A stretch of DNA of 64,000 nucleotides from a phage, in the sequence record PZ452582.1; one strand, given 5' to 3'. Positions 18,541-24,648 of the stretch are shown here, piece after piece. Below the pieces are notes generated by a model that did not search any database, was not told the origin of the DNA, and worked only from the letters and a program-made list of their open reading frames with translations. The first letter of the stretch is position 1. Each line of letters begins with the position of its first letter. The translations under genes were made by a program, and so were the position numbers.

Positions 18541-19968
18541 GTGGTAGAAATTATTCTTTCTCATCTTATATTTGATCAAGCTTATTTTTCAAAAGTTTGG
18601 CCATATATGGATTCAGAATATTTTGAAAGTGGTCCAGCTAAAAATACATTCAAATTAATTAAATCTCATGTCAACGAGTACCATAGCGTTCCATCTATTA
18701 ATGCGTTAAATGTTGCATTAGAAAATAGTTCATTTACTGAAACAGAATATTCTGGTGTAAAAACACTTATTTCAAAACTGGCTGATTCTCCAGAAGACCA
18801 CAGCTGGTTAGTAAAAGAAACAGAAAAATATGTTCAGCAAAGGGCGATGTTTAATGCTACGTCTAAAATAATCGAAATTCAAACTAATGCTGAGCTTCCT
18901 CCGGAAAAACGAAATAAGAAAATGCCGGATGTTGGTGCTATTCCTGACATCATGCGGCAAGCATTATCTATTTCATTTGATAGTTACGTTGGTCATGATT
19001 GGATGGATGACTATGAAGCACGTTGGCTATCTTATATGAATAAAGCTCGTAAAGTTCCATTTAAACTCAGAATTCTAAACAAAATTACTAAAGGCGGAGC
19101 TGAAACAGGAACACTGAACGTTTTAATGGCTGGCGTTAACGTTGGTAAATCATTAGGATTGTGTTCATTAGCGGCAGATTATTTACAGCTCGGACATAAT
19201 GTTCTTTACATTTCCATGGAAATGGCAGAAGAAGTCTGTGCTAAGCGTATTGACGCTAACATGCTTGATGTTTCTCTTGATGACATTGATGATGGGCATA
19301 TTTCTTACGCTGAATATAAAGGAAAAATGGAAAAATGGCGTGAGAAATCTACCCTTGGTCGTTTAATCGTTAAGCAATATCCTACTGGTGGAGCAGACGC
19401 TAATACATTTCGATCACTTTTAAATGAATTAAAGCTCAAGAAGAATTTTGTTCCAACAATCATTATTGTCGACTATCTAGGTATTTGTAAATCTTGCCGC
19501 ATTAGAGTTTATTCAGAAAATAGTTACACAACTGTTAAAGCTATCGCAGAGGAATTGCGTGCTCTGGCTGTTGAAACCGAAACTGTTCTTTGGACTGCAG
19601 CACAGGTTGGTAAACAAGCTTGGGACTCTTCCGATGTTAACATGAGCGATATTGCAGAATCTGCTGGTCTTCCAGCAACAGCTGATTTTATGCTTGCGGT
19701 CATTGAAACCGAGGAGCTAGCAGCTGCTGAACAACAACTCATTAAGCAAATCAAATCACGATATGGTGATAAGAATAAGTGGAATAAGTTTTTGATGGGT
19801 GTTCAAAAAGGAAATCAAAAATGGGTAGAAATTGAACAAGATTCTACTCCAACTGAAGTGAGTGAAGTAGCAGGTTCACAACAGATTCAGGCTGAGCAGA
19901 ATCGCTATCAAAGAAATGAATCCACTCGAGCTCAGTTAGATGCTTTGGCAAATGAATTAAAATTTTAG
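18541..19968 (+). CDS. 41: gp41 replicative DNA helicase (DnaB-like)
   Basis: 475 aa MVEIILSHLIFDQAYF..., GTG start, Walker A GVNVGKS; T4 gp41 length. Confidence 0.95.
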   Translation: MVEIILSHLIFDQAYFSKVWPYMDSEYFESGPAKNTFKLIKSHVNEYHSVPSINALNVALENSSFTETEYSGVKTLISKLADSPEDHSWLVKETEKYVQQRAMFNATSKIIEIQTNAELPPEKRNKKMPDVGAIPDIMRQALSISFDSYVGHDWMDDYEARWLSYMNKARKVPFKLRILNKITKGGAETGTLNVLMAGVNVGKSLGLCSLAADYLQLGHNVLYISMEMAEEVCAKRIDANMLDVSLDDIDDGHISYAEYKGKMEKWREKSTLGRLIVKQYPTGGADANTFRSLLNELKLKKNFVPTIIIVDYLGICKSCRIRVYSENSYTTVKAIAEELRALAVETETVLWTAAQVGKQAWDSSDVNMSDIAESAGLPATADFMLAVIETEELAAAEQQLIKQIKSRYGDKNKWNKFLMGVQKGNQKWVEIEQDSTPTEVSEVAGSQQIQAEQNRYQRNESTRAQLDALANELKF

Positions 19969-19997
19969 TTTACAAGCTGACAAGACTATGGTATAGT
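19968..19997 (+). promoter_or_regulatory. early promoter
   Basis: GTTTAC 19968-19973, 17-nt spacer, TATAGT 19992-19997, upstream of dmd. Confidence 0.55.
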
Positions 19998-20026
19998 AGT
20001 CTTGTTGGTTAAATGAGGAGATTGTT

Positions 20027-20209
20027 ATGGAATTGGTAAAGGTAGTTTTTATGGGGTGGTTTAAGAATGAAAGCATGTTTACTAAAGAAACCACAATGAT
20101 GAAAGATGACGTTCAATGGGCTACTACTCAATATGCTGAAGTTAATAAAGCATTAGTTAAAGCTTTCATTGATGACAAGAAAGTATGTGAAGTAGATTGC
20201 CGAGGATAA
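20027..20209 (+). CDS. dmd: Dmd antitoxin (inhibitor of host RnlA/LsoA toxins)
   Basis: 60 aa MELVKVVFMGWFKNESMFTKE...; length and position next to gene 41 as T4 61.5/dmd; sequence recall not fully certain. Confidence 0.75.
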   Translation: MELVKVVFMGWFKNESMFTKETTMMKDDVQWATTQYAEVNKALVKAFIDDKKVCEVDCRG

Positions 20210-20210
20210 T

Positions 20211-20468
20211 ATGCATATTGTTTTATTTAAACCTACTCCGTATAACGTCAGGAAAAATACGCAATTCAAAGCACTTATTGCAGATACGTGGGAATTGGTG
20301 CTAGATATTCCAACAGAAGAAAGTCCTCCATTTGGTCGAGTGGAATTTATTAAGTTTGCTGTACGTCCTACGAAGAGGCAGATTCGTCAGTGTAAAAGGT
20401 ATTTTCGTAAAATCGTCAAGTTAGAGAAACAGTTTGTAACATGTGATTATGCAGAAGTTTTAAAATAG
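20211..20468 (+). CDS. hypothetical basic protein (61.4 position; possibly TifA-like)
   Basis: 85 aa; basic segment RPTKRQIRQCKRYFRK; adjacent to dmd. Confidence 0.5.
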   Translation: MHIVLFKPTPYNVRKNTQFKALIADTWELVLDIPTEESPPFGRVEFIKFAVRPTKRQIRQCKRYFRKIVKLEKQFVTCDYAEVLK

Positions 20469-20470
20469 CT

Positions 20471-20500
20471 GTTTACTTTTGTTGGAAATTGAGATACTAT
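20471..20500 (+). promoter_or_regulatory. early promoter
   Basis: GTTTAC 20471-20476, 17-nt spacer, TACTAT 20495-20500. Confidence 0.5.
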
Positions 20501-20528
20501 ATAAACATAAACTACTGAGGAGATTATC

Positions 20529-20822
20529 ATGAAAAAATTTATCTTTGCTGCAATTTTTGCTTTAGCTTCTTGTGCTGCTCAGCCTGCTATGGCAGGTTAT
20601 GATAAAGATTTGTGTGAATGGTCTATGACTGCGGATCAGACTGAAGTTGAAACTCAAATTGAAGCGGATATTATGAATATCGTTGAGCGCGATCGTCCTG
20701 AAATGAAAGCTGAAGTGCAAAAACAGCTTAAGTCTGGTGGTGTAATGCAGTATAATTATGTTCTGTATTGCGATAAAAACTTTAATAACAAAAATATCGT
20801 AACCGAAATCACAGGTGAATAA
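20529..20822 (+). CDS. sp: Spackle periplasmic superinfection-exclusion protein (putative)
   Basis: 97 aa with cleavable signal peptide MKKFIFAAIFALASCAAQPAMA; length and 61.3 position. Confidence 0.7.
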   Translation: MKKFIFAAIFALASCAAQPAMAGYDKDLCEWSMTADQTEVETQIEADIMNIVERDRPEMKAEVQKQLKSGGVMQYNYVLYCDKNFNNKNIVTEITGE

Positions 20823-20823
20823 T

Positions 20824-21456
20824 ATGATTTATTATATGCACAAAAATCCACCGTTTAAATACGGTAAATTTCCTGATGCACAATGTTATAATATAACGCC
20901 TGATGAAAATAACCGTGGATATCTTATTGGCACAATTTTTGTAATTGTTAAAGATAACGAAATCGTTGCCTGGGCAGATTTTAAAGGTACAACACATGAT
21001 GTTAATCCGGTGCCTTTCACATATTACAATATAATGGATTTGGCATATGATTATAATTGGTTTAATCATGACACGTTGGCTCATATTGAAGGTGTAGGAT
21101 TTGACATCTCTTATTCTAGCTACTCATTGTGTCCTATGAGTCGGGCTCATAAAGAACCTGAATATTTTTCATTTAGGAAACGTGTAAACTTTAAACGCAA
21201 CACAGAGTATGTCGGTGGAATATTTGTTAAAGATAATCGAATTATTCGTATTAATTATCCTTTGAGCGTTAGTCAAAAAGATATTGATGTTGATTTAGAT
21301 TTCACTGAAAATAATATTAATCATATTGCTTCTGTGTATTTTGGTATCGATCACAAAATTGTAATATGTGGATATGAATTACCGTTTGAAGAACAGCCTA
21401 AAGTAAATGTTTCTATTGATGACCAAATTTTTAATGCTTTTATGAATAAAGGTTAA
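20824..21456 (+). CDS. hypothetical protein (61.2 position)
   Basis: 210 aa from ATG 20824; C-terminal tail SIDDQIFNAFMNKG shared with the next ORF. Confidence 0.55.
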   Translation: MIYYMHKNPPFKYGKFPDAQCYNITPDENNRGYLIGTIFVIVKDNEIVAWADFKGTTHDVNPVPFTYYNIMDLAYDYNWFNHDTLAHIEGVGFDISYSSYSLCPMSRAHKEPEYFSFRKRVNFKRNTEYVGGIFVKDNRIIRINYPLSVSQKDIDVDLDFTENNINHIASVYFGIDHKIVICGYELPFEEQPKVNVSIDDQIFNAFMNKG

Positions 21457-21460
21457 TATG
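21412..21460 (+). repeat. 49-bp direct repeat, copy 1
   Basis: tctattgatgaccaaatttttaatgcttttatgaataaaggttaatatg; near-identical copy at 21770-21818. Confidence 0.85.
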
Positions 21461-21814
21461 TATAGTTCTGAATTTTCATATTTAAAAATGGAAAAAATTT
21501 CATACGATTTTATAGATGAAAAGGTTTATTACAGTTTCCATGAACCACGTTTTAATAGTGAGGTTGGGTTTATTGTAGTAAAAGACAATTTTATTTTAAA
21601 AATATATTCAGCATTAAAGGATTTTCATTACGAAAATATTAACCTAAAATTTAATAAAGAAAACGTTCGTAATTGCGCAGTAACAATTACGGGAAATAAA
21701 GGTACATGTGTTATGCTATCTGATGAAATTAATGATTTGCTAAATGATGCAGAAAATATTACTGCACCATCTATTGATGACCAAATTTTTAATGCTTTTA
21801 TGAATAGAGGTTAA
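21458..21814 (+). CDS. hypothetical protein (61.1 position)
   Basis: 118-aa ORF bounded on both sides by the 49-bp direct repeat. Confidence 0.5.
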   Translation: MYSSEFSYLKMEKISYDFIDEKVYYSFHEPRFNSEVGFIVVKDNFILKIYSALKDFHYENINLKFNKENVRNCAVTITGNKGTCVMLSDEINDLLNDAENITAPSIDDQIFNAFMNRG

Positions 21815-21818
21815 TATG
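21770..21818 (+). repeat. 49-bp direct repeat, copy 2
   Basis: One mismatch to copy 1 (AGA versus AAA); spans the last 13 codons, the stop and the next start. Confidence 0.85.
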
Positions 21819-21980
21819 AAAACATATAAAGAATTTATCAAAGAAGATATGGTCGCTGGAGATTCAGGTGGTAGTCCTGAAAATATCTCTACTGGAACAA
21901 CGTCAGGCGCTGTAGTAAATAAAGGTCCTGAACAGATTCCTAAAAAGAAAAAAGAGGAATCTAAAGAAAAAGAAGAGTAA
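21816..21980 (+). CDS. small K/E-rich protein (not in ORF track)
   Basis: 54-aa ORF MKTYKEFIKEDMVAGDSGGSPEN..., ends 3 nt before primase ATG. Confidence 0.35.
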   Translation: MKTYKEFIKEDMVAGDSGGSPENISTGTTSGAVVNKGPEQIPKKKKEESKEKEE

Positions 21981-21983
21981 AGA

Positions 21984-23012
21984 ATGTCATCAATACCTTG
22001 GATTGATAATGAGTTTGCATACCGTGCATTAGCTCATTTACCTAAATTCACACAAGTAAATAATAGTTCAACTTTTAAATTACGGTTTAGATGCCCTGTT
22101 TGTGGAGATTCAAAAACCGACCAAAATAAAGCCCGTGGATGGTATTATGGTGATAATAATGAAGGAAATATTCATTGTTATAACTGTAACTATCATGCAC
22201 CAATCGGAATATATTTAAAGGAGTTTGAACCTGATTTATATCGTGAGTATATCTTTGAAATAAGAAAAGAAAAAGGTAAAAGTCGTCCAGTAGAAAAACC
22301 TAAAGAACTTCCTAAACAACTTGAGAAGAAAATAATTAAATCTCTTCCGTCATGTGTTAGATTAGATAAACTGGCGGAAGACCATCCAATTATAAAATAT
22401 GTAAAAGCTCGTTGTATTCCAAAGGATAAATGGAAATATCTTTGGTTTACAACCGAATGGCCTAAATTAGTTAATAGCATAGCACCGGGAACATATAAAA
22501 AGGAAATACCTGAGCCTCGTCTTGTTATTCCAATTTATAATGCTAATGGAAAAGCTGAGTCTTTTCAAGGACGTGCATTAAAGAAAGATGCTCCCCAAAA
22601 ATATATCACCATCAAAGCTTATCCTGAAGCAACAAAAATCTATGGAGTCGAACGAGTTAAAGATGGTGATGTATATGTTCTAGAAGGACCTATAGATTCA
22701 CTTTTTATTGAAAATGGTATAGCTATTACGGGTGGTCAATTAGACCTAGAAGTTGTTCCATTTAAAGATAGACGTGTGTGGGTTTTAGATAATGAACCTC
22801 GTCATCCTGACACTATTAAGCGAATGACTAAATTAGTTGATGCAGGAGAAAGGGTTATGTTTTGGGATAAATCTCCCTGGAAATCAAAAGATGTTAATGA
22901 TATGATTAGAAAGGAAGGTGCAACCCCTGAACAAATTATGGAATATATGAAAAATAATATTGCACAGGGGTTGATGGCTAAAATGCGGCTATCTAAATAT
23001 GCCAAGATTTAA
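21984..23012 (+). CDS. 61: gp61 DNA primase
   Basis: 342 aa; zinc ribbon CPVCGDS...CYNC; TOPRIM region; T4 gp61 length. Confidence 0.93.
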   Translation: MSSIPWIDNEFAYRALAHLPKFTQVNNSSTFKLRFRCPVCGDSKTDQNKARGWYYGDNNEGNIHCYNCNYHAPIGIYLKEFEPDLYREYIFEIRKEKGKSRPVEKPKELPKQLEKKIIKSLPSCVRLDKLAEDHPIIKYVKARCIPKDKWKYLWFTTEWPKLVNSIAPGTYKKEIPEPRLVIPIYNANGKAESFQGRALKKDAPQKYITIKAYPEATKIYGVERVKDGDVYVLEGPIDSLFIENGIAITGGQLDLEVVPFKDRRVWVLDNEPRHPDTIKRMTKLVDAGERVMFWDKSPWKSKDVNDMIRKEGATPEQIMEYMKNNIAQGLMAKMRLSKYAKI

Positions 23013-23209
23013 ATTAACCCAACTAAAGCAAATGCTAGATCTACGAATGTATCAAGAGTAACCACTGGAATATTAATACCATGTGCAATTGCAATAGGTG
23101 ATAGAATAAAGTTCCAGAGTAAAATTCCTACCATAGCAGAAATAGTAAAAGCTATACGTTTTTTATTACCTTTTATGGCATTAACAAGTGCCATTAATTT
23201 TTGTACCAT
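23009..23209 (-). CDS. small membrane protein, antisense to the operon direction
   Basis: 66 aa, two hydrophobic segments; strong SD AAGGAGG 5 nt before ATG; convergent with primase, overlapping by 4 nt. Confidence 0.45.
   Translation of the reverse strand: MVQKLMALVNAIKGNKKRIAFTISAMVGILLWNFILSPIAIAHGINIPVVTLDTFVDLAFALVGLI

Positions 23210-23308: not shown

Positions 23309-24648
<1,340 letters not shown>

Follow-up and report, generated by a model that had tools for sequence, protein, structure and literature searches.

In phage T4, dmd, tifA, sp, and adfA make up a published island directed against toxin-antitoxin (TA) systems, in which 61.4 was given the new name TifA and 61.2 was noted as adfA (Srikant, Guegler and Laub 2022, PMC9391042). 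In that work, dmd-tifA transcription was assigned to an early T4 promoter, the dmd-tifA-adfA locus was described as rearranging by recombination at short homologies, and the other genes of this probable anti-TA island were regarded as antitoxin candidates (PMC9391042). AdfA (anti-DarT factor A; LeRoux 2022 as cited in PMC9391042 and PMC11257639) binds and blocks the toxin DarT1, an ADP-ribosyltransferase, for which the RB69 protein needs His at position 164 (R164H), and the C-terminus of RB69 AdfA reads IFNAFMNRG (primer 32, PMC11257639). The T4 middle promoter P61 has its start site at 19122 (Marshall 1999 as listed in Hinton 2010, PMC2988021 Table 1). Here, the equivalent region of a phage sequence record was analyzed (PZ452582.1; the whole stretch of 64,000 nucleotides is referred to as the window), with the focus on a 49-bp direct repeat that flanks an open reading frame (ORF) of 118 amino acids (aa) next to adfA. 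We consider it likely that adfA and a half-size paralog stand here in tandem, and that the repeat is a conserved 3' module which carries a tail helix together with P61 and is a substrate for cassette gain and loss.

The window is of Tequatrovirus origin and resembles RB51 and RB32. The 2.2-kb interval matched 665 phage records, nearly all of them Tequatrovirus, and the best matches were vB_EcoM_R5505, RB51, RB68, and wV7 (97–98%). The gene order in the window was 41, dmd, tifA (85 aa), sp, adfA (210 aa), the short gene (118 aa), 61.1 (54 aa), and 61; the interval is thus the published T4 anti-TA island with an extra 118-aa gene, 61.1, and the primase gene 61. The island genes and their order are the same as in T4, which differs in having no short paralog, and PMC9391042 makes no mention of a tandem form or of the repeat. 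The initial annotation, made from the letters alone, had given the gene order correctly, with 61.1 (21816–21980), which lies inside the interval, left unnamed. It had also placed the interval in a counter-defence neighborhood and suggested comparing its proteins with the TifA and AdfA families. This was borne out by homology searches: the 85-aa ORF is TifA itself (97.6%), the 210-aa ORF is AdfA itself (PF23813), and the 118-aa ORF passes the AdfA threshold.

A repeat search of positions 19900–22100 returned a single long direct repeat, 21412–21460 and 21770–21818 (49 nucleotides [nt], 98% identity), in agreement with the one-mismatch repeat that had been reported around the 118-aa ORF. The two copies are spaced 358 nt start to start, flank the ORF exactly, and differ by one mismatch, AAA vs AGA, which corresponds to K vs R. 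Each copy runs from the last 14 codons of its ORF through the TAA stop to the ATG at which the next gene begins, with the junction GGTTAATATG. Copy 1 (+ strand) thus holds the end of adfA (SIDDQIFNAFMNKG) and the ATG of the short gene, and copy 2 (+ strand) the end of the short gene (SIDDQIFNAFMNRG) and the ATG of 61.1. Copy 2 is identical to the T4 49-mer and is the same in the window, RB51, T4, and T2. The 49-mer was conserved in every related phage examined, which argues that the repeat is no chance match. Judged by this conservation, it is a 3' module of adfA-family genes, composed of an invariant C-terminal helix (SIDDQIFNAFMNRG), a stop codon, a ribosome-binding site, and the next start.

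The promoter P61 lies inside the repeat and had been missed by the initial annotation. In T4 (NC_000866), base 19122 is the ninth nucleotide of 61.1 (ATGAAAACA), 7 nt past the TAATAT formed by the adfA stop and the 61.1 start, which places this hexamer at −12 to −7 of the P61 start. The MotA-box consensus was taken as (a/t)(a/t)(a/t)TGCTTtA, 12 ± 1 bp upstream of a TAnnnT −10 element (from PMC2988021). The box TAATGCTTTT, 12 nt upstream of TAATAT, agrees with it at 9/10 positions and is read in frame as Asn-Ala-Phe. Both copies in the window contain TAATGCTTTT, the 12-nt spacing, and TAATAT. Copy 2 (MotA box 21790–21799, −10 TAATAT 21812–21817, predicted start 21824) is the P61 ortholog, base for base like T4 P61 in box, 12-nt spacer, and −10, and by orthology with T4 the mapped start stands at the expected distance. 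Copy 1 is a putative promoter (MotA box 21432–21441, −10 TAATAT 21454–21459, pattern match 21435–21459, predicted start ~21466) and differs from the T4 P61 sequence by one spacer base. Compared with T4, the promoter sequence therefore occurs twice in the window phage, and the predicted upstream copy precedes the short gene. The middle-promoter pattern was enriched in the window as a whole (34 sites vs 15.5 expected; 0/100 shuffles reached 34). By these matches, the repeat codes for a protein tail while also holding a MotA-dependent promoter, a ribosome-binding site, and a start codon.

The short gene (21458–21814, + strand; RB32ORF033c, PHROG 4122) encodes the counterpart of AdfA residues ~111–210, and RB32ORF033c carries the label "similar to gp61.2" in the GenBank records of RB32, RB51, and RB18. 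BLASTP aligned AdfA 111–210 with residues 21–118 of the short ORF (36% identity, E 3e-10). The Pfam AdfA profile gave 32.2 bits (gathering cut-off 27), only at profile positions 113–211, and the precomputed database Pfam label of the short clusters was PF23813. When the short protein was compared with the C-terminal half of AdfA by hhalign, the probability was 97.7%, and removal of the 14 tail residues left E 8.6e-5 over 39 columns. The likeness extends beyond the tail, which makes the two an old paralog pair; by homology, the 118-aa protein is a paralog of AdfA, about half its size, and corresponds to the C-terminal half. It matched its own PHROG (4122, E 4e-72), separate from that of AdfA (3781). 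The ratio of nonsynonymous to synonymous substitution rates (dN/dS) was 0.12–0.28 against orthologs with dS up to 2.5, by which measure the short gene is under purifying selection.

The AlphaFold2 model of the short protein (predicted local distance difference test [pLDDT] 82.6, predicted template modeling score [pTM] 0.72) had five antiparallel strands, a helix (67–78), a strand, a helix, a low-confidence linker, and a tail helix (106–115, pLDDT ~55). Structure searches returned nothing similar to this fold outside the family, among either solved or predicted structures. The whole superfamily came to 10 representative clusters among 1.84 billion proteins, word-indexed searches recovered close relatives only, and PADLOC gave no match for either AdfA-family protein. 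The model of full AdfA was poor (pLDDT 53.7), and its N-terminal 80 residues had a strand and helix order like that of the short protein. An internal duplication of AdfA (N half vs C half) was considered; the VKDN-I hairpin motif was all that aligned (hhalign probability 11–14%), and the duplication remains a suggestion.

The longer member, adfA (61.2; 20824–21456, + strand; 210 aa), matched Pfam AdfA over its full length (PF23813, E 6.4e-138, 457 bits). Its His167, in the motif DFTENNINH, is the equivalent of RB69 AdfA specificity position 164, and the protein is like T4 gp61.2 in the full-length match, the locus, and the specificity His. No other gene of the island has diverged from T4 as far as adfA (74.8% aa identity; neighbors 94–99.8%). 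Over its first ~60 codons (20824–21000), adfA is mosaic in Tequatroviruses, with the match to the adfA of the window beginning only at gene nucleotide 115 in T4 and T6 and only at nucleotide 173 in RB32-type alleles. The short protein resembles AdfA in passing the family threshold, in its adjacent position, in the C-terminal half, and in the tail, and differs from it in missing the N-terminal 110 residues, in having Asn at the specificity position, and in giving no protection against the tested DarTG1 in T2. Both AdfA-family genes sit between sp and 61.1/61, the position that is syntenic in Tevenvirinae.

The tail and junction were also found on single genes and in other genera. The 49-mer terminates the lone adfA of T4, fPS-90, and D5505, and likewise the lone short gene of T2, CE1, and BCPShso_001. 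In Dhakavirus and in Yersinia phage P8, a gene of 145–146 aa at the equivalent position ends with YSIDDQIFNAFMNRG, followed by GGTTAATATG. Yersinia phage vB_YenM_P8 (locus L007, 1705–2545), and also locus L012, has a tandem of its own, in which the 145-aa type is followed by a short type of 116–119 aa (116 aa in P8) and each member carries a DDQIFNAFMK(R)(D/G) tail. Even the very diverged short-type proteins P0027 and P0029 retain DDQIFNAFMNRG. By this comparison, no other element of the locus is as well conserved from genus to genus as the tail. Without the tail, the 145-aa type gave nothing significant against AdfA or the short type (hhalign E 0.01–0.17; Smith-Waterman z ≤2.9), and with the tail included, Foldseek against BFVD gave E 5.7e-4 for it.

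Two further observations concern these relatives. In two Dhakavirus loci (L005 and L006, both 2548–2769), a 73-aa TifA-like gene (…FGRV…ARPTKRQIRKLKK…) follows the 146-aa tail-bearing gene, joined to it by GGTTAATATG; the gene with the AdfA tail therefore adjoins a TifA-like gene there, in the order opposite to that of T4. In the P8-type tandem, the order of the 145-aa type and the short type is the order of the two halves of full-length AdfA. An origin of AdfA by fusion of a 145-type and a short-type gene, at which the P8 order hints, was without statistical support and was not adopted.

The variable presence of the 118-aa cassette, for which the initial annotation had suggested a comparison of T-even genomes, was confirmed, and the boundary falls exactly at the repeat: T4 lacks precisely window positions 21412–21769, one 358-nt unit, and a difference as clean as this is the outcome expected of recombination between the copies. 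Population counts were taken from BLAST because an IMG/VR pattern scan gave only 13 loci; they are record counts and include RefSeq/GenBank duplicates. Cassette-specific DNA was present in 299 records (337 by tblastn, including relatives of 43–48% identity in other genera), the adfA body in 487, and the adfA-to-short junction, at ≥80% coverage, in 158. These numbers correspond roughly to ~158 records of the tandem form, ~329 with adfA only, and ~141 with the short gene only. In each of the four genomes of the last kind that were inspected, the junction read GGTGA(A/G)TAATTAGAGGTTA(A/G)TATG; here the last 13–14 nt of the module (ribosome-binding site, TAATAT or TAGTAT) directly follow the sp stop and the MotA box is missing. 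This common junction suggests that adfA was deleted once, in an ancestor that carried the tandem. The tandem form occurred with three classes of adfA alleles (210 aa in the window, RB51, and Sf21; 206 aa in RB32; 208 aa, T4-like, in RB18), from which it appears that recombination has reshuffled the arrangement. Tandem paralogous anti-defence genes in general, such as those of anti-CRISPR and anti-restriction-modification islands, are likewise small, fast-evolving, variably present inhibitors that are clustered and expressed early. The present locus differs from them in that the terminal helix common to the paralogs is invariant and their common junction bears a promoter, which provides a defined recombination point.

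The repeat had been read in the initial annotation as the footprint of an insertion, that is, of a foreign 118-aa cassette recently brought in by short-homology (illegitimate) recombination that created the 49-bp repeat. The exact flanking of the ORF, the clean 358-nt difference from T4, which is without the cassette, and the rearrangement of T4 at short homologies (references cited in PMC9391042) all fit such an event. However, the same tail and junction end every adfA-family gene, including the lone genes of T4 and T2, the 145-aa gene of Dhakavirus and Yersinia phages, and both members of the independent tandem with repeated tails in P8. Since they occur on single-copy genes and in other genera, they are no scar of one insertion, and the module is older than the tandem arrangement. 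Moreover, the ORF is homologous to AdfA over ~100 residues, at E 8.6e-5 even without the tail. Nor does the locus look like a mobile-element insertion with a target-site duplication: the 358-nt unit encodes the short adfA paralog only, with no mobility gene, and the "empty" site of T4, as well as other genes, already holds the sequence once. The insertion footprint is thus largely refuted and very unlikely. If the short ORF were instead a decaying, pseudogene-like partial duplicate without function, its dispensability in T4-type phages, the lack of a known phenotype, and the DarTG1 sensitivity of T2 without adfN would be accounted for. An ORF that is intact in 299 to 337 records, keeps dN/dS at 0.12–0.28 even at dS 0.45–2.5, folds confidently in the AlphaFold2 model, and is retained as the sole family member in T2-type phages makes such decay extremely improbable.

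Two other explanations concern the likeness of the copies and not their origin. Concerted evolution, in which gene conversion keeps both tails identical within a genome, would agree with the 48/49 identity of the copies in the window, RB32, and RB18, where the gene bodies are only ~27–36% identical at the protein level. Nevertheless, copies from one genome do not resemble each other more closely than copies from different genomes do, those of RB51 differ at 3 positions and those of Sf21 at 2, and the AAA/AGA difference is stable in 4/5 tandem lineages examined. With a family-wide constraint sufficient to explain the conservation, and within-genome similarity no higher than between-genome similarity, gene conversion between the tails was rejected as quite unlikely. 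Alternatively, the residues of the tail could have no role of their own and be conserved as a by-product of P61 and the translation-initiation region: the MotA box, spacer, and −10 fill the last 8 codons and the stop, and P61 of T4 has been mapped experimentally. Against this, SIDDQIF, which lies upstream of the MotA box, is invariant in the protein while its codons vary synonymously (GAT/GAC, CAA/CAG, TCT/TCA/TCG, ATT/ATC/ATA). In addition, other genera alter bases of the box or of the −10 (TGCC; TGCA in RB69; TGATAT) and keep the residues, and the diverged P0027 and P0029 still have DDQIFNAFMNRG. The promoter is therefore not the sole constraint on the tail, and an explanation by promoter and initiation signals alone is unlikely.

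The reading that we prefer is thus the tandem of adfA and its half-size paralog, joined and ended by a conserved module. The module would have two overlapping jobs: it would encode an amphipathic C-terminal helix (SIDDQIFNAFMNRG), and it would provide P61, whose MotA box falls on the N-A-F codons and whose −10 spans stop and start, along with the ribosome-binding site and start codon of the following gene. With two copies at a distance of 358 nt, the module offers a substrate for homologous recombination. Exchange between its copies would delete the short gene and yield the T4 state, and unequal exchange between genomes could add the gene, so that T-even phages would come to be adfA-only, tandem, or short-only. 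Transcripts from the predicted upstream copy of P61 would start at ~21466, a few codons into the short gene, whose protein would then be made from early transcripts only (promoters at 19969–19997 and upstream of sp), as is 61.1 in T4. In tandem genomes, 61.1 and the primase gene 61 would gain a second, predicted middle promoter. By homology with AdfA, the most likely role of the short protein is that of a single-domain inhibitor that binds a toxin. Its specificity may be set by the helix after the beta-sheet, where the window has Asn72 and the Sf21 allele has His, and its target is probably a DarT variant or a toxin other than the DarT1 tested so far.

Several points weigh against parts of this interpretation. 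Synonymous conservation of the tail was not demonstrably greater than that of the gene bodies, which leaves a promoter constraint unproven from sequence. MotA tolerates near-consensus boxes, and such boxes are no guarantee of activity (PMC2988021). In the 118-aa ORF, the residue of helix 67–78 that aligns with AdfA His167 and the RB69 R164H position is Asn72 and not His; Sf21-type short alleles have His at the equivalent site. Finally, T2 has been described as naturally lacking adfA, and without adfN it is 10^4-fold sensitive to DarTG1 (PMC11257639). The short gene is present in T2 as the only family member, so the short protein does not neutralize the tested DarT1 at native expression. An anti-defence role of the 118-aa protein, which the initial annotation had considered plausible, would be drawn from its kinship with AdfA, and the T2 data, although indirect, speak against activity on the tested DarTG1 (PMC11257639).

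A more tentative possibility, which we regard as rather doubtful, is that the invariant C-terminal helix is a portable docking motif tethering diverging inhibitor bodies (AdfA, the short protein, and the 145-aa Dhakavirus protein) to an invariant partner, with the gene end doubling as a recombination joint for cassette swapping. The partner might be a conserved surface of DarT-like toxins or a replisome component such as the gp45 clamp. If so, the promoter-bearing gene end would be a joint at which inhibitor cassettes are swapped, stacked, and lost, and the short gene would be a second, differently targeted anti-toxin, for example in T2, described as lacking adfA. As for the clamp, the SIDDQIF of the tail (21412–21453) appears weakly similar to the clamp-binding C-termini of gp43 (…KASLDFLFG, ends 14130) and gp55 (ends 646), with SLDFLF.

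The other features of the region are as follows, all on the + strand unless stated otherwise. An early sigma-70-type promoter was found upstream of dmd-tifA at 19969–19997 (TTTACA-17-TATAGT with TG; 10/12 matches in a consensus scan). The first gene, dmd (61.5; 20027–20209; 60 aa), encodes the RnlA toxin inhibitor (Pfam Dmd PF17587, E 1.8e-45; 98.3% identity with T4 Dmd), and tifA (61.4; 20211–20468; 85 aa) the ToxN inhibitor (Pfam DUF7279, E 3e-20). The latter has 97.6% identity with T4 gp61.4 over 85 aa and the same position, and identity and position together establish the 85-aa ORF as the ortholog of the experimentally defined TifA. A probable early promoter lies upstream of sp (~20471–20500), at a spot where an early promoter is annotated as predicted in Yersinia phage fPS-90. 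The gene sp (61.3; 20529–20822; 97 aa) encodes the Spackle periplasmic protein (Pfam T4_Spackle, E 1.5e-45). The 54-aa product of 61.1 (21816–21980) matched PHROG 1823 (E 2e-33) and is 94.4% identical to T4 gp61.1. It also matched the C-terminal third of a longer phage family, PHROG 2086 (profile positions 109–154/156, E 2e-16), and may represent part of a larger protein known in other phages, either as a fragment or as a domain that stands alone. Gene 61 (21984–23012), served by P61, encodes the DNA primase, as assigned by 98.8% identity with T4 gp61 and the annotation of related records.

Beyond the primase gene, two further ORFs were noted. A 66-aa ORF on the minus strand (23009–23209; RB32ORF030w, PHROG 2024) shares 4 nt with the 3' end of gene 61; elsewhere annotated as a predicted membrane protein, it is found in RB32, RB51, T2, and Sf21 and is unannotated in T4. 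A 186-aa ORF (23309–23869, PHROG 8706) lies just upstream of dam (23869–24648), the gene of the Dam GATC methyltransferase, and its stop codon overlaps the dam start. The ORF product has a weak likeness to restriction endonucleases of the DpnII type, which act at GATC (Pfam PF04556, E 0.004; PADLOC REase_II, E 8.5e-5), and the ORF may be what is left of a restriction-modification pair. At this site, T2 has gene T2_31, T4 only a gap of 310 nt, and RB51 and Sf21 neither the ORF nor dam.

The variable presence of genes in this region and its counter-defence context are largely published. What is added is modest: the family membership, structure, and presence in T2 of the short gene, the coincidence of the protein tail with P61, and the repeat-bounded polymorphism. 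The stability of the 49-mer and its role as a breakpoint are accounted for by the overlap of the protein tail with the middle promoter of the primase gene. Current concepts are left unchanged and the annotation is refined, in that a half-size AdfA relative is recognized in ~300 sequenced T-even records, within a region that ranks among the best studied in phage counter-defence. The family membership of the short protein and its retained, polymorphic (Asn/His) specificity helix make it a candidate for unassigned anti-DarT or other anti-toxin activities in T-even phages, of which their unexplained resistance to DarTG2 (PMC11257639) may be one.

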